This document shows positions 5,809 through 46,173 of a stretch of DNA of 46,457 bases, one piece after another (positions within the stretch are counted from its first letter, which is position 1; each line of letters starts with the position of its first letter). The position numbers and the translations under genes were made by a program. This stretch comes from a phage. The DNA is taken from the NCBI GenBank assembly GCA_026328835.1, contig GCA_026328835.1_4850.1. One strand, 5' to 3'. The notes below the pieces were generated by a model. That model worked only from the letters and a program-made list of their open reading frames with translations, did not search any database and had not been told where the DNA came from.

Positions 5809-5931
5809 ATGAACATAATCCCTATCACTTACTTTCTCACGCTATACGCACTCACCAATTCGCCATTGTTTGCACTGGCTACCGCCTCATGGTGCTATAT
5901 CTCCCTGTGTTATAATTCGTCCACAAACTAA
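5809..5931 (+). CDS. hypothetical small membrane protein
   Basis: hand-translated 40 aa; AGGAGG RBS at 5797-5802. Confidence 0.35.
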   Translation: MNIIPITYFLTLYALTNSPLFALATASWCYISLCYNSSTN

Positions 5932-8817: not shown

Positions 8818-9015
8818 ATGGCTAAGTACGAAGTCATCGCACGCGGAATCTTTGTCAAAGAAAAAGGCAAGATTCGTGAATTGCAGCTTGGCGAGGTTAT
8901 CACGGAACCTGCTGAGCATCTGCTACCAAAGCTGCGCGTTATGCCGGAACTGGAAAAGTCTTTCGAAGTCGCAACCCCGCAAGAAAAGACGACAAAGAGA
9001 AAGAAAGCAGAGTAA
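8818..9015 (+). CDS. hypothetical protein
   Basis: 65-aa ORF with RBS GAGGTGA. Confidence 0.45.
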   Translation: MAKYEVIARGIFVKEKGKIRELQLGEVITEPAEHLLPKLRVMPELEKSFEVATPQEKTTKRKKAE

Positions 9016-9019
9016 ACTG

Positions 9020-9044
9020 AACCCGCATAATGCGGGTTTTTTAT
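9020..9044 (+). terminator. rho-independent terminator
   Basis: acccgca-taa-tgcgggt stem then TTTTTT. Confidence 0.7.
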
Positions 9045-9055
9045 TGGGGGCTTCT

Positions 9056-9904
9056 ATGGCAGTAAGATACGACATATTCACCACACGCGAAGATGGCGAG
9101 GTGATGCTTGATGAGTTGATGTCCGCTGACTGGACTGCGCTACAGGTTAACGTGATGCCACTTGATTCATCTGGCGCATACACACCACTTGTCAGTGGAA
9201 CTGTGTCCGTGAAGGTGTCGCCATTTGAATCTGGCAACTACTGGATTGACGTCAACAATAATAATTATTACGGCGTAGCGCTGCGCCTGAAGATAATCAA
9301 AACGGAATTACCAGCAGCAGTAAGTTCGCTGCGCGTTTCGGTGTGGCGCGCTGGCGTTTCTCCACAATCGGTAGTAAACCTTCAGCCTGACGTGGCGATA
9401 AGCGATATCACCACGCAGTCATATATTGAACGCGCCAATAAGCAAGGCAAGCTGTTCACCGCGTCGCGTAGAGTAACTGATGTTTCTGGCGGCTCAAACA
9501 TTGACAGCATTTTTATCACCGGAACAAAGCAGGTGATATTCAACCAGCGCATTATTGGTTACACAGGGAAAGGTGTTATTGCGTCAATCTATCGCGGCGC
9601 AGTTGCCACAGGAGGCACAGCAGCAGAGATTAATAATCCAAACGATATAACACCACAGGCAGCTACGGCGCAGCTGCTGACTGGCGCTACTGTGACAAAC
9701 ATCGGACAGTTGACAGTTGCAGCAACGTATAGCGAAGGGAATGCATCGAATCAGGGGCAGGGTAACTCGCAGGCTAGATTAGGTGAGCAGATTATCATGG
9801 CACCAAACACGACGTACTTACTTCGCATAACATCACTGGATACTGCGGTGCAGAATATCAATGCTTACGTTTCGTGGTTTGAGGATGATACTTATCTGGC
9901 GTGA
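9056..9904 (+). CDS. putative virion structural protein
   Basis: internal ATG 9056 (MAVRYDIF...) after terminator preferred over track start 8852. Confidence 0.45.
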   Translation: MAVRYDIFTTREDGEVMLDELMSADWTALQVNVMPLDSSGAYTPLVSGTVSVKVSPFESGNYWIDVNNNNYYGVALRLKIIKTELPAAVSSLRVSVWRAGVSPQSVVNLQPDVAISDITTQSYIERANKQGKLFTASRRVTDVSGGSNIDSIFITGTKQVIFNQRIIGYTGKGVIASIYRGAVATGGTAAEINNPNDITPQAATAQLLTGATVTNIGQLTVAATYSEGNASNQGQGNSQARLGEQIIMAPNTTYLLRITSLDTAVQNINAYVSWFEDDTYLA

Positions 9905-9908
9905 TAAA

Positions 9909-9937
9909 ATAAAAGCCCCGTGAAGGGGCTTTTTATT
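9909..9937. terminator. bidirectional rho-independent terminator
   Basis: aaagcccc-gtgaa-ggggcttt between convergent genes. Confidence 0.7.
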
Positions 9938-12037: not shown

Positions 12038-12066
12038 ACTATAAACACCTCACCAATCTACGTCAA
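12038..12066 (-). promoter_or_regulatory. sigma70-like promoter for the minus-strand island
   Basis: minus strand TTGACG (12066-12061), 17-nt spacer, TATAGT (12043-12038). Confidence 0.5.
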
Positions 12067-12074
12067 CAGGAATA

Positions 12075-12083
12075 TGCTAAAAT
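12075..12083 (+). promoter_or_regulatory. extended -10 promoter element (TGcTAAAAT)
   Basis: TG-N-TAAAAT about 30 nt upstream of the ORF at 12114. Confidence 0.35.
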
Positions 12084-14792: not shown

Positions 14793-15311
14793 ACTGGTTT
14801 AAGCATTGCCAGCGTGCTTTCTTAATATCCAGTCCCGTAACCCATACATACCCCTACATATGATTGCGATAATGCTGGATATTAAGTGTTGTTGTGGCCG
14901 GTGCTGATCTCCGGCTTGCGGTTATTTCAGACTCTCACGGGCGTTTAATTGCCCCGCCGAACAGCTCTTTTCCGCAATAGCTGCAATGTCTTTCGCGCAT
15001 CAGCCTGCGCATTCACCACAACGGCAAGAACACTGGCTAACCACGCGCGCAGACTCTTCAGGATTATCTGCTCAATGCTCTTACCTGTTGTGTTCCCTGA
15101 CTTATTAATCACACCTCAGGGACGCAGTGCGCCGAATTTGTTTACAAGGAATCGGAATACCTTGCTGACTTACAGGCTATTACGCCGCCATCAGAACAAC
15201 ATCATCGTTTGCATTTGTCTTTGTGGTCAGTTTCTAAAAAGTCCGCAAAGTCGCTCACGAAAACTATCTGAAATACAATCTACACCACAAAATAATCACT
15301 GTCAACACCTG

Positions 15312-15320
15312 TGATATAAT
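15312..15320 (+). promoter_or_regulatory. extended -10 promoter element TGATATAAT
   Basis: TG-N-TATAAT 36 nt upstream of major tail gene; followed by palindrome gttagc-a-gctaac. Confidence 0.5.
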
Positions 15321-15356
15321 CACCACGTTAGCAGCTAACACAATTCGGAGATCGAA

Positions 15357-16076
15357 ATGGCTATTTGTGCAAATGATAAAGGCGTTCTGGTCGGTCGCAT
15401 GACCAGACTGTTCCTTGCTGAAGGGTGCGGTGACGCAGTTCCGGATGCGGGAGACTGGAAATATTTAGGCTCAACCACCAGTAAAGGTGTTGACTACTCG
15501 CCGCAGACCACTACGTCGGAAGCGGATACCGCTGGCGGTTTTGTTTCCACTCTCGTTACCAGCTCTGATATGACCATCAGTGCAGAGGTTGAAATCCGCA
15601 AGAATGACCCGAGCGATGAATTTGGCTTCCATCGTCTGGTTGAGATTTACGCCACTGAACTGAAAGCGCGTCGTCAGCCTTCCTTGTGGGTGCGTGAAGT
15701 AACTGGCGCGACTATCGTTACCGCGTATTGCAACATCACCAGCATCAGTTATGAAGGTGGCACAAACGACATCGTGACTGGCAGCCTTGAGTTCAAGGTT
15801 TACGATTCCGACAGCGTTACCGTCGAAAGCCTTGAGCCTCTGGCGTTCACTACCGACCTGCAATCAACTGGCACGGCTGGCAGCCCGTTAACTGTTGCTG
15901 TTGAAGGTGGCGTTGCACCATACACCTATGTGTGGCGAAAAGATGGCGTAGTTGTTGGTGGCGAATCTGGCGCAACACTGGCAAGCCCAACAGCTGGTGT
16001 ATATACCGTCACGGTAACTGATTCTTCTACTGACCCGGAAATTATCATCAGCACGGCTTGCACTGTGTCCGCATAA
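15357..16076 (+). CDS. major tail protein with C-terminal Ig-like domain
   Basis: 239 aa; C-terminal ~80 aa Ig-like (PLTVAVEGGVAPYTYVWRKDG...GVYTVTVTD); followed by terminator. Confidence 0.6.
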   Translation: MAICANDKGVLVGRMTRLFLAEGCGDAVPDAGDWKYLGSTTSKGVDYSPQTTTSEADTAGGFVSTLVTSSDMTISAEVEIRKNDPSDEFGFHRLVEIYATELKARRQPSLWVREVTGATIVTAYCNITSISYEGGTNDIVTGSLEFKVYDSDSVTVESLEPLAFTTDLQSTGTAGSPLTVAVEGGVAPYTYVWRKDGVVVGGESGATLASPTAGVYTVTVTDSSTDPEIIISTACTVSA

Positions 16077-16747: not shown

Positions 16748-16826
16748 AACTCACCTCATTTATTCATCACTCGTTTCGATGACTTGAATCTACATCACCA
16801 CCTCGCAGGTGTCAACATCACCGAGA

Positions 16827-16835
16827 TGATATAAT
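16827..16835 (+). promoter_or_regulatory. extended -10 promoter element TGATATAAT
   Basis: identical to element at 15312; upstream block aatctacatcac...gtcaaca also shared. Confidence 0.5.
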
Positions 16836-20061: not shown

Positions 20062-20085
20062 ATAAGCCCCTCACGGGGCTTTGTT
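20062..20085. terminator. rho-independent terminator
   Basis: aagcccc-tcac-ggggctt stem-loop. Confidence 0.6.
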
Positions 20086-20949
20086 CATTATCTCGTCCAT
20101 TAATTCAGGTGAATATTTAAGCCACTCCGTTGCGCCATCAAACCCTGTCAGTCCTGCACTTTCGTATTTCTTATGATAGTACCTTTCAATAGCAAGAGCA
20201 TCACAACCTATTGTCTTTATTTTTGATATGACGTGAAAATCAAATGGTGTGTTTTTCTTTAACTGACAAACTCTACGCCTAAGATTGTTAGTGATCCCAA
20301 CTTTAATTTCGTTTCCTGAGAACAAGAAGTAAACAAAGGCCTTTTCTTTCAGCTTGAAACCTCCCTTGGAGCAATGAGGGCAACCTTGCCCTTGGAGATG
20401 CTTATCTGGCGTCTTTGTAAACCACCCATGCTCTGGGCATTTTATTCTCATTTTTGTTGTCACATTAATGTATGACAAGCAATCATAATGGTACTTATTC
20501 CCATGAATTATAATGGCATCTTTCTTGAACTTATTGAACCCCTTAGTTACAGATGCTGTAATTTTCTCCCTTGCGCAAACAGGGCAACCACACCCATTAA
20601 GGTGGCTGTTGGCCTCCTGAGAAAACTCAAAGTTATGTACTTTGCATATTATTTTTACTTTCTTGTGACCACCTTTGTATTCAACTTTAGAATAATCATA
20701 AGAGTCACCATGCTTTGCAATCGCATCAGCCACAAATTCACGCGTTGTTTTCTTCTTATTTCCAGAGCAAGAAGGGCATCCAGCTCCATTCAAATGAGAG
20801 TTTGGAGTCTGCTCAAATAGCCCATGCTTACGGCATGTTATCTTTACCTTTATCGAACTTTTTATATAAGAAACAGCATCATAAAGATATTTATCACCAT
20901 GAATATCTCTGGCTTTTATAATAAATTCTTCAGCGGTTGACTTGCTCAT
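20071..20949 (-). CDS. putative nuclease: three tandem Cys/His zinc-ribbon repeats plus T5orf172 (GIY-YIG-like) C-terminal domain
   Basis: three ~65-aa repeats HG.KY.Y...C..HG.F...P..HL.G.GCP.C; C-terminal VYFLF..NEIKVGIT.NL.RR...EWL. Confidence 0.55.
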   Translation of the reverse strand: MSKSTAEEFIIKARDIHGDKYLYDAVSYIKSSIKVKITCRKHGLFEQTPNSHLNGAGCPSCSGNKKKTTREFVADAIAKHGDSYDYSKVEYKGGHKKVKIICKVHNFEFSQEANSHLNGCGCPVCAREKITASVTKGFNKFKKDAIIIHGNKYHYDCLSYINVTTKMRIKCPEHGWFTKTPDKHLQGQGCPHCSKGGFKLKEKAFVYFLFSGNEIKVGITNNLRRRVCQLKKNTPFDFHVISKIKTIGCDALAIERYYHKKYESAGLTGFDGATEWLKYSPELMDEIMNKAP

Positions 20950-21086
20950 GATTGAATCCTCGGTTAAAGGTGGTTTGAAGTGATGCAGCAGGCGATAACC
21001 AATCGCTTTTCATCTGGCCGGACTAGCTGCACTTATGATTGTACCATCAGCGTGCTAAAATACAACAACACAAGATGGAGACTATC

Positions 21087-22457: not shown

Positions 22458-25795
<3,338 letters not shown>

Positions 25796-25834
25796 TACAA
25801 TATACATCAAATTCACAAAGGAGCATTTACTATA

Positions 25835-27820
25835 ATGGCTACCGTACCAACCAACAAACCAATTCCGTCTGAAGACCCGCGAGACCTGAAGTTTAATGCC
25901 GGAAAAATTGACGAGGTAGTGACATCTGAAGCACATTACTACAACGATCGCTTTGGCGTGCGCCGCTGGACTATTGCTGGATTCCAGCACACAGCAGAAG
26001 AAGCTATCCGCAACTATGGTTACATCACGATGGACAGCTTTGAAGATGGAGCGACACTAACGCTACCTAATCAGGTGCTGCGCTATGAGGCTACTGGCGA
26101 ATATTACCGTTGGGATGGGGAGTTTCCAAAAACAGTGCCTGCAGGTTCAACCCCTGAAACATCTGGTGGCATTGGTCTTGGTGCGTGGGTCAGTGTTGGT
26201 GATGCGTCTTTAAAGACCATGCTTTATGGGTGGCAGGGCTACTCATTCATTGACGGTGGTAACTTATCATTATACAAAAAGAAAGGCATCTTTGGTGATT
26301 CAGGGGTAATTCAAAACAAATATGAAGTAATTAAATATTCTGATGGGTTTTGGTATAAATATAACAACTCATTGCCATTCTCTTACGGTTCATCCCCTGA
26401 TTCCAATTGGACTAACGTAGGCAAGCTGAATGGGTTTGACGAGAATACCCCAGATAATTTCGGGGCGGTTGTAAATGACAGTACGTATGACTGCCTTGAC
26501 GCCATTAACAAGGCAATGGCTACTGGATTTTTACGACTCACTGCTGGTGCCACTTATTTTGTTAGCGATGAAGTTGTTATCCCATCTAATTTAGTGATGG
26601 AAACAAACGGCGCAACTATTAAAGCGATGAGTGGATATTCATGGGGTGGAAAGGCTGTAGTTAGAGCCAGCAAAAAACCAGTAGGGACATCTCCGGACCT
26701 TTCATTGCCTGAACAACAAGTTCGTGGAATTAGGCACGTTGGTACATTAAATATTGATGCTAACAATGTTGCGCCTTACGGTTTTTATGGTTTTGGTGTA
26801 GTCGCAGAATCTGCCACAGACATTATATATGCTTATAATGCCACAGAAGTTGGAATTGTACTTCTTGGGAGTTGGTATCATAAAGTAAACCAATATATGG
26901 CGATTGATTGTGCAAGAGGTGTATCTCTGGCGCATGGTTTCTCAGGTGAAACAGGAGACGTAAACGTTAATGGTGTTGAATTTGGTGTCGTCGCTGCGTA
27001 TAACACATCAAAATCTTTGTCCTATGGGTATGACCCGTATTCATCATCTTTAACCCCACAGCTCATAGGTGCTGGTGTCACTCTCGGGCAAGGACTGGCA
27101 TCAAGAATAGGAACATTAATAGCTGAAACTACAGCAGGCGCTGGTTTAGCTACTGTTAACGCTGTTAGTTGGTCTGTTGGTTCTATGTACTTCGAAAAAT
27201 GCAGTGAAGCGCTTGAAGATAGCGCAGAGCCTGATATTGCGATATTATCAACTACAGGAAATGTCGAGGACCACGTATTTGACGTAGGTAATATCCATTT
27301 CGGCATAGGGACTGGTATACTGCAAAGAGCAACGGCAAGTGAGTTTCTCAACATCCAGTCCATATACCGTATGGACAATAAAAAAACATGGCATAGTTTT
27401 TCAAAGGCGTCTTCAAGTTTTGTAAATTTCGTAAACTATTACGTTCTCAACCCTTATGATTACGTTAAACCTGTTCAACTGACTCATGACGTAGGCAAAG
27501 AGGTCGTCAGTTCATCGTCAATGCTTAACTTTAAGGATTTTTCAAATACGCCAATTATACCTTTTGTATACACCGGAGGTGAGATAGCGATTCACGTTTC
27601 CATTTCTTACGGCAGTGTATTATCTACTGAATTTCAGGTAACTTCTGATTCAGGAATAGAATACATCACATGCACTGGATCACCTTTTCAGTTTAACCTT
27701 ACGCAGCCAAGGACAGTAGGTAATACCTATACTGTGACGTTATCAACTGCGAAATCAGCAGCTTCTGGTCAAGGGGCGATACATATACTGAAACAAAAAC
27801 CAAGTCAATGGCTTAGGTAA
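25835..27820 (+). CDS. tailspike / tail fiber with beta-helix depolymerase-like domain
   Basis: 661 aa; N-terminal anchor domain then DNFGAVVNDSTYDCLDAINKAMA (pectate-lyase-like start) and Gly/Val-rich beta-repeat region. Confidence 0.65.
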   Translation: MATVPTNKPIPSEDPRDLKFNAGKIDEVVTSEAHYYNDRFGVRRWTIAGFQHTAEEAIRNYGYITMDSFEDGATLTLPNQVLRYEATGEYYRWDGEFPKTVPAGSTPETSGGIGLGAWVSVGDASLKTMLYGWQGYSFIDGGNLSLYKKKGIFGDSGVIQNKYEVIKYSDGFWYKYNNSLPFSYGSSPDSNWTNVGKLNGFDENTPDNFGAVVNDSTYDCLDAINKAMATGFLRLTAGATYFVSDEVVIPSNLVMETNGATIKAMSGYSWGGKAVVRASKKPVGTSPDLSLPEQQVRGIRHVGTLNIDANNVAPYGFYGFGVVAESATDIIYAYNATEVGIVLLGSWYHKVNQYMAIDCARGVSLAHGFSGETGDVNVNGVEFGVVAAYNTSKSLSYGYDPYSSSLTPQLIGAGVTLGQGLASRIGTLIAETTAGAGLATVNAVSWSVGSMYFEKCSEALEDSAEPDIAILSTTGNVEDHVFDVGNIHFGIGTGILQRATASEFLNIQSIYRMDNKKTWHSFSKASSSFVNFVNYYVLNPYDYVKPVQLTHDVGKEVVSSSSMLNFKDFSNTPIIPFVYTGGEIAIHVSISYGSVLSTEFQVTSDSGIEYITCTGSPFQFNLTQPRTVGNTYTVTLSTAKSAASGQGAIHILKQKPSQWLR

Positions 27821-33222: not shown

Positions 33223-33360
33223 AGTTTTTGCACTTTTTCAGAGTGATAGCCATTTCTTATCCTCGATATTAAACTCAGTTGCGTTTCATGTCAATAACGC
33301 TTGTGCGTTTCATGCGAGTAAATTACAATGATTCTACATCAACGTCAACAGGAAGATTTT

Positions 33361-37965: not shown

Positions 37966-38057
37966 CAGGCGCATCATTCGAGCTTATATTCAGTCTGGTT
38001 ATCGTGGCATTCATCGTTATCGCAGTGGCAGTTTCTAAATCAGGGTATAAGGAGTAA
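37962..38057 (+). CDS. hypothetical small membrane peptide
   Basis: hand-translated 31 aa with one TM; ATGA overlap. Confidence 0.25.
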   Translation: MTGASFELIFSLVIVAFIVIAVAVSKSGYKE

Positions 38058-39851: not shown

Positions 39852-39877
39852 AACCCGCCTTGTGCGGGTTCTTTTTT
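39852..39877 (+). terminator. rho-independent terminator
   Basis: aacccgc-cttgt-gcgggtt then CTTTTTT. Confidence 0.7.
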
Positions 39878-39924
39878 ATCTGTGTTAAACTAACGGTATC
39901 GAAATACGAAAAGACGAAAACAGA

Positions 39925-40374: not shown

Positions 40375-40380
40375 TATAAT
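40375..40380 (+). promoter_or_regulatory. -10 hexamer TATAAT preceding HNH leader
   Basis: TATAAT 7 nt upstream of structured element. Confidence 0.35.
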
Positions 40381-40387
40381 AATCAAT

Positions 40388-40433
40388 GCGGCAAAGGGTA
40401 GCTCCCTGCCCGGATTGGTCTCCGGGCTGCCGC
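40388..40433 (+). ncRNA. conserved structured 5' leader element (copy A)
   Basis: outer stem gcggca/tgccgc enclosing hairpins aggg-tagct-ccct and gcccgga-ttggtc-tccgggc; near-identical copy at 45501-45546. Confidence 0.5.
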
Positions 40434-40471
40434 ATCCAACCAATAGACCGCCTGTAACCGAGGATTCAATC

Positions 40472-40990
40472 ATGTCATCATTAAAAGAGTTGCCACTCAC
40501 TCAAGAAAGACTTAAACATCTCCTGCATTACAATCCAGACACCGGTGTTTTCACGTGGTTAAGTAAGCCAAGCAGAAGAATAAATTCTGGAAGCATTGCT
40601 GGCAGGATAAAACCTAAGAAGGGGTATGTGGAAATAGGAATAAGTGGAAGGATCTATCTTGCTCATAGGCTGGCATGGCTTTACATCTATGGAACTTGGC
40701 CTAAAGAACAAGTTGACCACATTAATGGCATTCGTAACGATAACAGGATTAAGAATTTAAGGCTGGCCACAACATCACAGAATCAGTGGAACAAGAAGAT
40801 GCAAAAAAACAACACATCTGGAATTAAGGGGGTTAGCTGGGATAATCAACGGGGAAAATGGATAGCCCAATGCTGGTTATTTGGCAAGTATCACAAAATA
40901 GGTAGGTTTTCATCAATTGATGATGCTGAACGTGCAATAAGACAGTTCAGGGAGAAACATCAGGGGGAATTTTGCAATCATGGCGCGTAA
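40472..40990 (+). CDS. HNH homing endonuclease with AP2-like domain
   Basis: start MSSLKEL at 40472; HRLAW...DHINGIRNDNRIKNLR; NTSGIKGVSW. Confidence 0.8.
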   Translation: MSSLKELPLTQERLKHLLHYNPDTGVFTWLSKPSRRINSGSIAGRIKPKKGYVEIGISGRIYLAHRLAWLYIYGTWPKEQVDHINGIRNDNRIKNLRLATTSQNQWNKKMQKNNTSGIKGVSWDNQRGKWIAQCWLFGKYHKIGRFSSIDDAERAIRQFREKHQGEFCNHGA

Positions 40991-42404
40991 AAGACTCTCA
41001 AGCGTTGCGATAGAAAAACTTGAGCAAGCAGTAGGCAATTCAACTGCAAAGCCAGAGTCCGCTGTTTTCGGCCTTGTCGATAAGATATTGTCTGACGGTA
41101 CACCAAATGTGGTTAAGTGCCTTAAAATGACAGCCACTGGCGTGTCAGAAACAGACGAGAAGCCAACAATATTAATCCCTGAGCGAATGGAGCTGCTGCT
41201 TTATCCTCGCCGTTTCAAAGTGTTCTATGGTGGCAGGGGAAGCGGAAAGACGGCTAACGTTGTTTCTTACCTTATAGAAAAGGCAAGATTTCGCAACAGC
41301 CGCGTCGGATGCTTCCGTGAGATACAGAACTCAATCAAAGAATCAAGCTATGCCGAGCTGGTCGATGAGATAAACAGGAAGGGGCGCACTCAGGAATATC
41401 GTTGCGTGGATGGCGAGATAACACACCACACAACGAGATCAAAGTTTGTTTTTCGTGGCCTTTGGCGAAACATAACCGCAATCAAGGGCATGGCTGGACT
41501 TACAGATGTGTTCTGCGAAGAATCCGAAAACATCAGTCAGGTGTCATGGGATACGTTAATCCCAACGGTGCGCGCCTCTGGTTCTGAAATTATTATTGTT
41601 TTTAACCCAAATAAAGAGACGGACCCGACGTGGACTAACTTTGTTGAGCCTTACATCGGCAAAATGGTTGACGGCATATATCAGGATGATGACATCGTTG
41701 TTGTTAATGTTAACTACGTCCACAACCCGTGGTTCACGGAAGAACTTAAACAGCACATGAACCAGATGAAGGCTGTGGATTATGATCGCTACCTTTGGGT
41801 GTATGAAGGTAAATTCAACAAACGCAGTGACGAACAGGTATTCGGCGGCAAATGGCGCATTGATAACTTTGAGGTCAAGCCTGAATGGCACGGCCCATAC
41901 TTCGGGATGGACTTCGGGTTCAGTACGGACCCCACTGCAATGGTTGAGGTTTACATCGAAGAACTGCCTGGTGGACGGCGCAACATTTATATTAATCGCG
42001 AGTATGGCAAGGTTGGACTTGAGATTACCGATACGCCAGCCGCGATGGAGCAATCATTCCCGATGGCTAAGCGCGCACGATGGTATGCCGACTGCGCTCG
42101 ACCTGAAACTATCAGCCACATCAAGCGTTCTGGATTTGACATTCACCCATGCACGAAATGGCCTGGGAGCGTTGAGGATGGCGTAACATGGTTGCGCGGC
42201 TGCGACAGTATCATCATTCATGACAGGTGCAAGGAAATGCAAAATGAGGCTGCAATGTACAGCTACAAGGTTGATAAGCTGACTGGCAACGTGCTGACTG
42301 ATATTGTCGATGCATTCAACCACTTCTGGGATGCTGTTCGCTATGCGCTTAATGACCATATCGTCCAGCGCGGTAGTGGAATGCTAATCCGGCGCAGGCG
42401 TTAA
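40980..42404 (+). CDS. terminase large subunit
   Basis: 474 aa; Walker A YGGRGSGKT; C-terminal nuclease-like region. Confidence 0.9.
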   Translation: MARKRLSSVAIEKLEQAVGNSTAKPESAVFGLVDKILSDGTPNVVKCLKMTATGVSETDEKPTILIPERMELLLYPRRFKVFYGGRGSGKTANVVSYLIEKARFRNSRVGCFREIQNSIKESSYAELVDEINRKGRTQEYRCVDGEITHHTTRSKFVFRGLWRNITAIKGMAGLTDVFCEESENISQVSWDTLIPTVRASGSEIIIVFNPNKETDPTWTNFVEPYIGKMVDGIYQDDDIVVVNVNYVHNPWFTEELKQHMNQMKAVDYDRYLWVYEGKFNKRSDEQVFGGKWRIDNFEVKPEWHGPYFGMDFGFSTDPTAMVEVYIEELPGGRRNIYINREYGKVGLEITDTPAAMEQSFPMAKRARWYADCARPETISHIKRSGFDIHPCTKWPGSVEDGVTWLRGCDSIIIHDRCKEMQNEAAMYSYKVDKLTGNVLTDIVDAFNHFWDAVRYALNDHIVQRGSGMLIRRRR

Positions 42405-42420
42405 ATCCACACCACAACAC

Positions 42421-42449
42421 TTGACCAATCTACACCATGCGCATATAGT
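42421..42449 (+). promoter_or_regulatory. sigma70-like promoter
   Basis: TTGACC, 17-nt spacer, TATAGT. Confidence 0.55.
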
Positions 42450-42479
42450 ATCTACATCGGAAACATCGGAGATGCTACT

Positions 42480-42686
42480 ATGCGCAGCTATGCAGGATTT
42501 ACACAGGAGGAAAAAGAACAGGTTTATTCACTGGCGCGCGCTGGTGTTCCTGATGATGTCATATGCCGTCGTTATGATATCGACGAGGATTTCCTGCTGC
42601 GCGTCATTGACGATGTGTTCGTTAACCTGCAAGAGAGGCGCGGATATACTGGCATCTGCTGCAAGAATGATTTTTTGAGAGGGTGA
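42480..42686 (+). CDS. hypothetical protein
   Basis: 68-aa ORF downstream of promoter. Confidence 0.45.
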   Translation: MRSYAGFTQEEKEQVYSLARAGVPDDVICRRYDIDEDFLLRVIDDVFVNLQERRGYTGICCKNDFLRG

Positions 42687-42857
42687 TGTGATGAAAATTG
42701 AGGAAACGGTTAACTGCATGGCGATTAATGCATTTACCGATTACGACACCATTTGCGTGCAAGATTTTACTGGCGATTATGTAAGGCTGGACAAGCACCA
42801 AGCCGCGCAACTCATCGAAGTGCTGCAAAAGTGGATTGATGGCGAGGAGATTGAGTA

Positions 42858-43100
42858 ATGGCTGCTACGATTCTTGCTCTTACCGTTACGGTTTTCTTTA
42901 TTTACATCCTGATAAGAAATCAGTTTGTCTATATTGAGCGCGGCATGTTTATAAAATACTTCTATGAGGAAGACACAGAAGGATATGCAGCAGGTAAGCG
43001 ATTCCATGAGGCGTTACCAAGTTACGACGAGATGCTGTGGAAATTTTGGGTATGGCCTTTGTCAAAATTCTATCCAGCGTACAGAAATCGCAACAAGTGA
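42858..43100 (+). CDS. hypothetical membrane-anchored protein
   Basis: 80 aa; N-terminal TM AATILALTVTVFFIYILI. Confidence 0.45.
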   Translation: MAATILALTVTVFFIYILIRNQFVYIERGMFIKYFYEEDTEGYAAGKRFHEALPSYDEMLWKFWVWPLSKFYPAYRNRNK

Positions 43101-43108
43101 CCATGATA

Positions 43109-43135
43109 TAATCCCCTTAATTGGGGATTTTTTAT
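43109..43135 (+). terminator. stem-loop plus T-run (terminator or 5' hairpin of portal transcript)
   Basis: atcccc-ttaatt-ggggat then TTTTTTATT; overlapped upstream by TGATATAAT 43104-43112. Confidence 0.5.
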
Positions 43136-43141
43136 TGGTGA

Positions 43142-45485
<2,344 letters not shown>

Positions 45486-45488
<3 letters not shown>

Positions 45489-45494
45489 TATAAT
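45486..45494 (+). promoter_or_regulatory. extended -10 promoter element TGATATAAT preceding HNH leader
   Basis: 7 nt upstream of structured element copy B. Confidence 0.45.
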
Positions 45495-45500
45495 TTACTT

Positions 45501-45546
45501 GCAGCAAAGGGTAGCTCCCTGCCCGGATTGGTCTCCGGGCTGCTGC
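45501..45546 (+). ncRNA. conserved structured 5' leader element (copy B)
   Basis: identical inner hairpins to copy A; outer stem gcagca/tgctgc carries compensatory change. Confidence 0.5.
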
Positions 45547-45585
45547 ATCCAATCAATAGACCATCCTTATGACCGAGGACTCAAA

Positions 45586-46137
45586 ATGAAATCAATAAAC
45601 CGCAACAAAATGCCTGCAATGGCTCGCCTTTCACATCTATTCATTATTTCCAATGATGGAACAATCAAGCGCAGAATTGCTGCTGGCAATAGAGCGGCAG
45701 GCAGCAGCGCAGAAAGGAGTTTGTGTGGAAGTGACTATACATGCATAACTGTTGATGGCGTAAGATACCTAACCCATAGGGTTATTTGGTTCTTCTTTAC
45801 TGGTGAAGAGCCTGATTATCTTGATCACATAAATAGAAACAAAAAGGACAACAGACTATGCAATTTGAGGCCAGTATCCGCCACAGGAAACAGAAGTAAC
45901 ACTGATTTGATGAACAACAACACAACTGGATATATTGGTGTTTATTGGTATTACTACAAAGGAACTCCTAGATGGAGAGCTGCTTGCAACGATAAACATC
46001 TTGGGTATTACAGTTCGCTTGTCTCGGCAGTAAAGGCATATAATCGTTATGTGACAAGTATTTATGGTGATGAGGCATTAGCAAAGGTTGAGCATAACAA
46101 GAGGATGATCAAAGAATCTTTTGGTATTGAACTGTAG
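45586..46137 (+). CDS. HNH homing endonuclease with AP2-like domain
   Basis: start MKSINRNK at 45586; HRVIW...DHINRNKKDNRLCNLR; NTTGYIGVYW. Confidence 0.75.
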   Translation: MKSINRNKMPAMARLSHLFIISNDGTIKRRIAAGNRAAGSSAERSLCGSDYTCITVDGVRYLTHRVIWFFFTGEEPDYLDHINRNKKDNRLCNLRPVSATGNRSNTDLMNNNTTGYIGVYWYYYKGTPRWRAACNDKHLGYYSSLVSAVKAYNRYVTSIYGDEALAKVEHNKRMIKESFGIEL

Positions 46138-46142
46138 CAAAC

Positions 46143-46173
46143 AAAAAGCCCTCTAAGTGAGGGCTTTGCTTTA
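46143..46173. terminator. bidirectional rho-independent terminator
   Basis: aaagccctc-taagt-gagggcttt between convergent genes. Confidence 0.7.

Follow-up and report, generated by a model that had tools for sequence, protein, structure and literature searches.

The 46,457-nucleotide contig GCA_026328835.1_4850.1, referred to here as the window, is essentially the whole genome of a siphovirus, and the element at positions 43104–43136, just upstream of its portal gene, is probably a composite of a terminator and a promoter that works as an 'insulated restart' of transcription. According to this reading, the hairpin at 43110–43129 and the U-tract that follows it would end the transcripts of a variable accessory cassette that lies 3' of terL and is served by a predicted promoter of its own at 42421–42449, and the -35-independent sequence TGATATAAT embedded in the same element would restart transcription at about 43119–43120, inside the loop of the hairpin. 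The new RNA, made without the left arm, could not form the terminator and would pass the T-tract, so that an unstructured leader of about 25 nt would take it into the portal and head-morphogenesis genes. A 45-bp fusion of terminator, promoter and ribosome-binding site of this kind would insulate a core late gene from an accessory cassette that is constantly exchanged. The anatomy of the element, its conservation, the compensatory changes in its stem, the mosaic boundary at its left edge and its folding energies were observed directly; all functional statements in this work are based on sequence, conservation and folding only, with the significance of folding being judged against dinucleotide shuffles.

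From 5' to 3', the region reads AAG TGA CCA, TGATATAAT, CCCC TTAATT GGGG, ATTTTTTATT, GGTGA, ATC and ATG. The extended -10 promoter predicted for the portal and head-morphogenesis genes occupies 43104–43112 of the + strand, with its TG at -15/-14 and a TATAAT (43107–43112) that matches the consensus at all six positions, and the best -35 sequence available matches at only one of six. The AAT of this TATAAT (43110–43112) constitutes the first three nucleotides of the left arm of the hairpin AAUCCCC-UUAAUU-GGGGAUU (43110–43129, + strand), in which 43110–43116 pairs with 43123–43129 to form a 7-bp stem with four G-C pairs and a 6-nt loop. The hairpin was matched by a terminator scan as an intrinsic terminator, and it is located 10 nt 3' of the TGA stop codon (43098–43100) of the preceding small open reading frame (ORF). 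It is followed on the same strand by the U-tract TTTTTTATT (T6-A-TT, 43128–43136), whose run of five to seven T is kept in all the relatives analysed, and then by the Shine-Dalgarno sequence (SD) GGTGA at 43137–43141 and the portal ATG, which together span 43137–43147. The portal gene itself extends from 43145 to 44557 (Pfam Phage_portal_3, 2.2e-21). Further upstream, just 3' of terL, a putative promoter of the canonical sigma-70 type, TTGACC-17-TATAGT (42421–42449, + strand), probably gives rise to the transcripts that would be stopped at 43110.

Folding of the region 43095–43140 yielded -16.4 kcal/mol (z-score, z, of -3.3), and none of 200 shuffles was as stable. These values, together with the terminator scan match and the compensatory stem changes described below, agree with the proposal of an earlier annotation made from the sequence alone (the first-pass annotation) that the hairpin would serve as the terminator of the upstream cassette. 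The same annotation had also placed this hairpin at the 5' end of the downstream transcript. The inverted repeat was found where it had been reported, but it begins inside the -10 hexamer. With the standard spacing between a -10 and its start, transcription is predicted to begin at the A residues 43119–43120 (+ strand), 7–8 nt 3' of the -10 and within the hairpin loop, and from the position of the -10 at 43107–43112 any plausible start would fall between 43117 and 43121, entirely downstream of the left arm (43110–43116), which stops 1–3 nt short of it. The new transcript therefore cannot carry the hairpin, which is not a 5' cap. Consistent with this, RNA beginning at 43119 was found to be unstructured (-3.2 kcal/mol, z +0.88).

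The window shows 85–91% nucleotide identity to phages of Escherichia coli, Salmonella and Klebsiella, such as swi2, Bas77–81, 64795_sal3, IME207, Sf11 and VSt472, which were grouped as the Skatevirus cluster by the BASEL authors (bioRxiv 10.1101/2024.09.12.612763). To compare the element among relatives, 39 genomes were fetched around the portal gene, whose product is 67–98% identical in amino acid sequence across them; 34 were fetched around the major tail gene (10-kb flanks) and 32 around the spanin gene. The TGnTATAAT, the hairpin, the T-run, the SD and the ATG were all retained in the 39 portal loci. In every one of them the TG and the TATAAT were invariant, and the base between them was A, C or T. 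The hairpin itself was present in at least seven versions, three of them being further loop variants. These include CCCC-TTAATT-GGGG, CCCATC-CAACGT-GATGGG, CCCTC-CATCGT-GAGGG and ACCCTTACA-GAAA-TGTGAGGGT, which give rise to the RNA stems CCCC/GGGG, CCCATC/GAUGGG, CCCUC/GAGGG and ACCCUUACA/UGUGAGGGU, respectively. In the alignment, 98.8% of the cells were paired compared to 38–60% in slid controls, three pairs were altered on both sides, and none of 500 shuffles attained the same covariation score.

These changes bear on the possibility that the repeat is an operator, in which a dimeric phage repressor or activator bound to AATCCCC..GGGGATT (-8 to +11) would time the portal promoter, with no terminator involved. 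An inverted repeat over the -10 and +1 occupies the classic position of an operator, and the late timing of near-consensus promoters does need some explanation. However, the sequence and length of the stem and also the loop vary among the relatives with the pairing retained, as expected if the constraint acts on an RNA structure rather than on a protein-binding sequence; in addition, a run of five to seven T always lies directly 3' of the repeat, and the other eight promoters of the same class (see below) have no such repeat. The operator was therefore rejected on the covariation of the stems, and is considered extremely unlikely.

The left edge of the element coincides with an abrupt loss of similarity. 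The 60 nt upstream of it fall into about 15 unrelated classes among the 39 genomes, and conservation starts at the (CA)TG. The element thus marks a mosaic junction and, when the upstream cassette is swapped, remains attached to the portal gene. In the loci L059 and L064, direct repeats of TGATATAATCAACATCAGT are found on both sides of a 373-bp insertion, which suggests that a cassette was inserted by recombination at the promoter sequence. This insertion is located about 1460–1840 nt after the start of the major tail gene and carries a minus-strand promoter.

Both the recombination hot spot at the left edge, with its many classes of flank, and the direct repeats in L059/L064 could also be accommodated if the element were a terminator only, the TGnTATAAT being inactive and kept as a recombination linker, as a sigma-70-dependent pause site or as an AT-rich context for termination, with the portal gene expressed by read-through. 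It is also reported that RNA polymerase can be paused by sequences resembling a -10 in the DNA that it transcribes (PMC5389655). However, the stem needs just the AAT, yet the TG and the TAT are also invariant, and a fixed TG and TATAAT with a varying base between them is the signature of an extended -10. Moreover, copies of the 9-mer are found 26–45 nt upstream of other late gene starts without any terminator. A further argument came from the -10-like sequence TGATAAAAT in the window (9902–9935), which lies directly before the bidirectional terminator that follows the head cluster and whose TGA is the stop codon of ORF 8852–9904. It was considered as a second fusion and rejected, as its final T is a G in the relatives (TGATAAAAG) and only minus-strand genes follow. 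This site serves as a negative control, in which a -10-like sequence is not conserved where no + strand gene follows. A role of the element as a terminator only is judged unlikely.

Variants of the element in which the SD forms part of the hairpin argue in the same direction. In L012 and L038, the ATG comes directly after the T-run, and the right arm of the hairpin provides the SD, GAGGG, at a distance of 7 nt from the ATG. The fusion of promoter, terminator and SD in L151 precedes an unrelated gene of 471 amino acids, again with the ATG next to the T-run and the SD in the right arm (GAGGG or GGGGG in such variants). The L151 protein showed no similarity to the portal protein of the window, so this fusion is no evidence of deep orthology. 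An SD in the right arm makes sense only if transcripts start inside the hairpin: read-through RNA would hide the ribosome-binding site, which would be exposed only by internally started RNA, and if the element acted solely as a terminator, the portal would be poorly translatable from the read-through RNA in these variants.

This arrangement is exactly the one expected if the hairpin had, as its main function, a translational gating similar to that of phage T4, hiding the portal ribosome-binding site on read-through RNA so that only the internally started RNA is translated. The mechanism is established for the T4 genes e, soc and I-TevI (PMC2988022), and besides L012/L038 and L151 the arrangement is present before the holE-like morons of Klebsiella prophages. 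However, the SD (43137–43141 in the window) is located, here and in the majority of relatives, 3' of both the hairpin and the T-tract and is not sequestered, and a T-tract is the mark of a terminator. Gating as the main role of the hairpin is thus regarded as very unlikely.

The fusions in Klebsiella prophages were detected by a pattern scan for a -10, a terminator and an SD. In L149, L143, L153, L170 and about 30 more IMG/VR loci, TGnTATATAATCCCCTC-loop-GAGGGGATTTTT-ATG was found before a moron gene whose product resembles the theta subunit of DNA polymerase III (holE), with the -10 joined to the left arm of the terminator and the SD in the right arm. That such fusions occur in siphoviruses, with a type of promoter different from that of the T4-like cassettes described below, and also in Klebsiella prophages unrelated to them points to a general design.

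Several points weigh against the reading of the element as an insulated restart. Promoter activity, the start position and termination are all predicted from sequence, and a literature search for transcript mapping in Skatevirus, Shuimuvirus or Swiduovirus found none. Initiation could be abortive or prone to slippage owing to the T6 run, which would occupy about +10 to +15 of the new RNA, and the spacing between the SD and the AUG is short (3–4 nt). Expression of the portal gene could also come from read-through if the terminator is leaky, and the conservation of the TG and TATAAT could partly reflect a role as a recombination linker. If these are late promoters, their near-consensus extended -10 sequences would also need to be silenced early in the infection, and no regulator was found in a comparison of ten early-region ORFs with PHROGs, which returned 'unknown function' only.

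The closest described counterparts are the promoter-early stem-loops (PeSLs) of T4-like myoviruses, composite promoter/terminator cassettes that act as the linking sequences when cassettes are shuffled (Arbiol et al. 2010, PMC2839356; Comeau et al. 2014, PMC4122927). Their stem-loop is mostly located in the interval from the -35 to the -10 or overlaps the -10, and both promoter and terminator activities were demonstrated with reporters (PMC2839356). As in a PeSL, a single intergenic element (43104–43147) joins a sigma-70-type promoter, a terminator stem-loop over the -10 and the SD and start codon of the gene that follows, and it lies at the border of variable gene cassettes, where it would provide transcriptional insulation and where the conserved sequence coincides with recombination junctions. 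In contrast, PeSLs have -35 and -10 boxes and an AT-rich upstream region, whereas the element described here has an extended -10, no -35 and a mosaic flank that is not AT-rich. PeSLs also drive early ORFans and are present as many dispersed copies in hyperplastic regions, whereas this element is single-copy in the window and orthologous across the relatives, and would drive a core structural gene, the portal. It is the one fusion of a -10 with a terminator of this kind in the window; the other TGnTATAAT sites have no such hairpin. The mosaic left flanks and the insertion in L059/L064 are hints that recombination of the PeSL type may also take place. Experimental evidence for the logic of such fusions comes from PeSLs alone, in T4-like phages.

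Late promoters of T4 provide a second parallel, as those of e, soc, I-TevI and segB, and that of mobE in Aeh1, lie inside inhibitory hairpins that sequester the ribosome-binding site (PMC2988022). There too, RNAs made from the promoter do not include the 5' arm of the hairpin, which acts on transcripts arriving from upstream. However, T4 uses gp55-dependent TATAAATA promoters and its hairpins hide the ribosome-binding site rather than terminate, whereas the SD of the portal gene in the window is not part of the hairpin; sequestering of the T4 type is matched by the L012/L038 and L151 variants only. The element therefore works like the PeSLs and the promoter-in-hairpin systems of T4, being a member of neither. 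Regarding the promoter itself, in sigma-70 promoters of the extended -10 (TGn) type, such as galP1, the TG is placed one base 5' of a near-consensus -10 and the -35 is unrecognisable. The placement of the TG and the missing -35 are shared with the phage, which differs in using this type systematically for its structural and lysis modules.

The cassette upstream of the portal gene can also be compared to the morons of lambdoid phages, which are units of promoter, gene and terminator (PMC2839356). Like morons, the cassette at 42421–43136 and the HNH cassette at 45486–46167 are each bounded by a promoter and a terminator of their own. Unlike in morons, exchange of the cassette leaves the terminator at 43110 next to the portal gene, and this terminator belongs to the core-gene side. 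The fusion marks the exact mosaic junction, and it represents a ready-made, compact part for synthetic biology.

The first-pass annotation had listed TGATATAAT at 15312, 16827, 43104 and 45486 and proposed that these sites form a class of promoters. The four coordinates were right, although a fifth copy, at 1975, had been overlooked. All five are on the + strand, compared to an expected number of 0.62, and none of 100 shuffles reached five. The broader pattern TGnTATAAT occurred six times on the + strand and never on the minus strand (a one-base relaxation adds TGTTATAAT at 5908), and looser sites of the form TGnTAnAAT were found at four further positions: 241, where the lysis cluster follows, 12075, 21053 and 25793, the last upstream of a tail-fibre gene. 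Across 279 kb of portal loci, TGnTATAAT was present 51 times on the gene strand and three times on the opposite one. Exactly four copies were detected in Bas77, all of them on the + strand and syntenic with those of the window, and none on its minus strand.

Comparison with the relatives gave the proposed class further support, as TGnTATAAT was invariant at four gene starts in 34–39 relatives despite differing flanks and its occurrence on the minus strand was close to zero. In addition to its presence before the portal ATG in 39/39 genomes, TGATATAAT was found 45 nt 5' of the ATG of the major tail gene (15357–16076) in 34 of 34 relatives, in an identical form (15312–15320, + strand, in the window), and in L073 and L074 the conservation at this site begins at CTGTGATATAAT. 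It was likewise present before the tail-assembly gene in 34/34 (16827–16835, + strand; putative promoter of the operon for tail assembly, Pfam DUF6246, and tape measure), even though a variable minus-strand cassette shifts its distance to the 15312 site. The head gene cluster is preceded by TGTTATAAT (5908–5916, + strand), a candidate promoter absent from the earlier list, in Bas77 and in all relatives whose fetched DNA reaches that far. Upstream of the lysis cluster, a TGnTAnAAT, mostly TGATAGAAT (241–249, + strand, in the window), was found in 30 of the 32 spanin-anchored loci, the other two being truncated there. Finally, the sites at 12075, 21053 and 25793 were invariant wherever the downstream gene was present (15/15, 5/5 and 18/18 relatives, respectively); the first is TGCTAAAAT (12075–12083, + strand), placed back-to-back with a minus-strand TTGACG-17-TATAGT, and the last is TGATACAAT (25793–25801, + strand), in front of a tail fibre or spike gene (25835–27820). 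No usable -35 was found at any of the extended -10 sites, the best match being three of six or fewer.

The promoter class is thus well supported by comparison, the activity of its members being predicted. At least nine such extended -10, -35-less promoters are recognised genome-wide, all on the + strand and one before each structural or lysis module, as judged from their sequences. The fifth exact copy (1975–1983, + strand) was rejected as a further promoter and attributed to chance: it runs antisense inside a minus-strand ORF of 84 amino acids, and L083, the only relative with that gene, reads TAATGTAAT at this position. One chance copy of TGATATAAT per genome is about what is expected.

The + strand encodes the lysis, head, tail, terminase and portal modules, as judged from the annotation of Bas77 and from Pfam, and is interrupted by minus-strand blocks that hold genes for replication and accessory genes of the moron-like kind. 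No TG is present in the clear -35/-10 promoters of the genome, which are directed towards early or accessory genes and comprise TTGACA-17-TAGATT at 15282 and 16792 (minus strand), TTGACG-17-TATAGT at 12043 (minus strand), and further ones at 33271 and 37151 (minus strand) and at 37985 and 42444 (+ strand). The promoters of early and moron genes, mostly located on the minus strand, are canonical, with -35 and -10 and without TG, and the TGn class would correspond to late promoters, with a timing deduced from the sequence. That this split between early -35 and late -35-less promoters reflects an AsiA-like factor that blocks -35 recognition is an unlikely possibility. Taken together, these assignments provide a first transcription map, predicted from sequence, for a widespread and therapeutically used group of siphoviruses of Salmonella, E. 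coli and Klebsiella.

Promoters of the two types are paired at several places. At 15277–15320, 16787–16835 and 12038–12083, a canonical minus-strand promoter is located 6–11 nt from the + strand extended -10, and at such distances the binding sites for the polymerase overlap. No obvious minus-strand gene lies downstream of 15282, so an antisense RNA is possible there. The sequence AATCTA...TGTCAA upstream of 15312 and 16827 was considered as a + strand -35 or as an activator site and rejected for its inconsistent spacing (6 vs 11 nt); it fits instead the minus-strand TTGACA-17-TAGATT promoters. A related 10-nt motif, AATCTACRYC, occurs as eight exact copies, all in promoter regions (3485 and 37624 on the minus strand; 12055, 15277, 16787, 30262, 30272 and 42427), against a naive expectation of about 0.35, with near-copies at 42404 and 42449. 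When one mismatch was allowed, 20 were counted in the window compared to 8.7 +/- 2.8 in shuffles. In several places, the motif is the -10 (TAGATT) of a minus-strand promoter, which explains it only partly. After terL, three copies spaced about 22–23 nt apart surround the + strand promoter in a way that resembles an operator array.

As to what follows each promoter, the first-pass annotation had proposed that TGATATAAT defines a general class of promoters whose mRNAs are capped by a protective 5' hairpin, the one at 43111 included. It is known that 5'-terminal stem-loops can stabilise mRNAs in E. coli, as in ompA. The inverted repeat said to follow every copy was present after 15312, 43104 and 45486, but not after 16827 (fold z +1.45) or after the chance copy at 1975. 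The repeat reported at 15328 as gttagc-a-gctaac does exist, but a 1-nt loop is sterically impossible, and its real form is a small hairpin of 5 bp with a 3-nt loop, GUUAG-CAG-CUAAC (15327–15339, + strand). Located at about +1 of the major-tail mRNA, it may fit a 5'-terminal stem-loop by its geometry; however, it is weak (z -0.83 for 15325–15365) and identical in all 34 relatives, so that no covariation signal is possible. The predicted RNAs from 15312, 16827, 5908, 241 and 25793 had no more structure than expected by chance (z -1.2 to +1.45), the regions 43095–43140 and 45499–45590 being the only two that were more stable than shuffles, and the start positions compatible with the -10 at 43104 all fall 3' of the left arm, as described above. 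A hairpin downstream of TGATATAAT is not a property of the class, and a general capping of its mRNAs is barely credible. The site at 45486 is different: the inverted repeat reported for the HNH leader at 45501 belongs to a structured region (z -3.0), and in every copy of this leader the first helix, P1, starts 5–8 nt 3' of the -10. The capping idea is therefore wrong at the site for which it had been flagged, and it fits the leaders of endonuclease genes only.

These leaders are the most novel thing uncovered. At 45486–45494 (+ strand), the TGATATAAT promoter predicted for the HNH_3 (Pfam) cassette begins with the TGA at which the head-morphogenesis gene (44502–45488) ends, and it is followed by a three-way junction (copy 1, 45495–45548, + strand) that matched the covariance model described below with 42.4 bits. 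Its P1 pairs UGCAGC (45500–45505) with GCUGCA (45542–45547), P2 is a GGG...CCC helix, and P3 pairs 45521–45527 with 45534–45540 around the loop UUGGUC (45528–45533). The region 45499–45590 folded at -33 kcal/mol. Downstream of the junction, within 45559–45588 (+ strand), two sequences complementary to the P3 loop were found, GACCA (45559–45563) and GACC (45571–45574), the second followed by the SD GAGGA (45575–45579) and by the AUG at 45586 of the HNH gene, which extends to 46137. Copy 2 (40375–40435, + strand; 31 bits, E 8e-07) has a -10 TATAAT without TG (40375–40380) and a junction at 40382–40435, in which P1 is compensated to GCGGC/GCCGC, and it precedes an HNH_3+AP2 gene (40472–40990; Pfam). 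Copy 3 is on the minus strand (20983–21046; 64 bits), with the putative promoter TGGTACAAT at 21046–21038 and the junction at 21036–20983, and it precedes a T5orf172/MUG113 endonuclease gene (20949–20071; Pfam). Up to the SD region, the full units span 45495–45588 (+), 40375–40474 (+) and 21046–20947 (-).

Endonuclease genes located after the portal, head-morphogenesis or spanin gene of the relatives all begin with TGATATAAT, whose TGA is usually the stop codon of the upstream gene, then 5–6 variable bases and then (T)GCAGC...GCTGC(A). The upstream gene that provides this stop is the head-morphogenesis gene in the window, and the portal or the spanin gene in the relatives L008, L031 and L105. 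Where the TGA is the upstream stop codon, the terminating ribosome would be about 12 nt from helix P1. RNAalifold and a covariance model gave a three-way junction with a P1 of GCAGC/GCUGC, a variable P2 and a highly variable P3. In an alignment of 17 distinct sequences, which was itself fitted to the model, 99% of the cells were paired, 33 cells were changed on both sides compared to 10 +/- 2.4 in shuffles, and the covariation score was 0.464, compared to 0.06 or less with slid partners. When the body of the leader was searched without requiring a promoter, a -10-like hexamer was found to end 5–8 nt before P1 in nearly every copy, so the transcripts should begin at the first bases of P1.

The loop of P3 is complementary to a site 1, at +9 to +13 after P1, and to a site 2, at +20 to +27, which abuts or overlaps the SD. 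At least two such sites were present in their own leader for 15 of 16 loop types, compared to 29 of 238 cross-pairings. The mean longest match between loop and site was 5.33 nt for own pairs and 3.33 nt for cross pairs, and none of 20,000 permutations reached the own value. Behind the leader, four unrelated families of endonucleases were found: HNH_3 with or without AP2, T5orf172/MUG113, HNH+NUMOD3 and GIY-YIG+NUMOD3. The leader was located at 205 places in 116 phage records, where it is unannotated. The 4227 covariance models of Rfam gave no match in the whole window at gathering thresholds, and at E <= 10 they gave only noise (E > 2) for 45470–45620. A ribozyme of hammerhead- or pistol-like type was also considered and rejected, as the junction nucleotides differ between classes (UAG/GAAAAG vs AAA/U) and there is no Rfam match.

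It is tentatively proposed that the leader may be an undescribed, portable cis-regulatory RNA, spread by the four families in phages of the Skatevirus cluster, in which a two-state pseudoknot switch would set the translation of the homing endonuclease, with site 1 acting as a decoy about 10 nt after P1 and site 2 at the SD. The switch is possibly combined with protection of the 5' end. Such a leader could explain how toxic homing endonucleases are restrained and how their cassettes can be expressed wherever they are inserted. It resembles the RNA control of homing endonucleases in T-even phages (PMC2988022) and stabilisers of the ompA type in having its own promoter, a structured leader, a pairable SD and P1 at the extreme 5' end. 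It is unlike them in that the leader is a covarying three-way junction, its P3 loop matches two downstream sites and it is associated with four unrelated endonuclease families.

The cassette of the T5orf172 type that holds copy 3 (about 20062–21061) separates the tape-measure gene from the tail gene that follows it; it is inserted in antisense orientation and has a bidirectional terminator at about 20062–20083. In cassette-free relatives, the stop codon of the tape-measure gene overlaps the ATG of the next tail gene (TAATG), coupling the two. At the edge of the cassette, an outward-facing extended -10, TGCTAAAAT (21053–21061, + strand), which came with the cassette, is predicted to drive again the tail gene that starts at the ATG at 21079. 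This promoter was present in only five of the 34 relatives, four of which carry the leader in the model search (the fifth, L076, was outside that search). Endonuclease cassettes of T4 embed promoters for the neighbour genes (PMC2988022), a pattern that the outward promoter at 21053 matches.

A junction of a simpler type was observed at 39852–39889, before a gene encoding 147 amino acids upstream of terL, where the extended -10-like sequence TGTTAAACT lies no more than 10 nt after a terminator (AACCCGCCTTGTGCGGGTT+T6). Bas77 has TGTTAAAAT in place of TGTTAAACT, and at this junction the terminator precedes the promoter without overlapping it.

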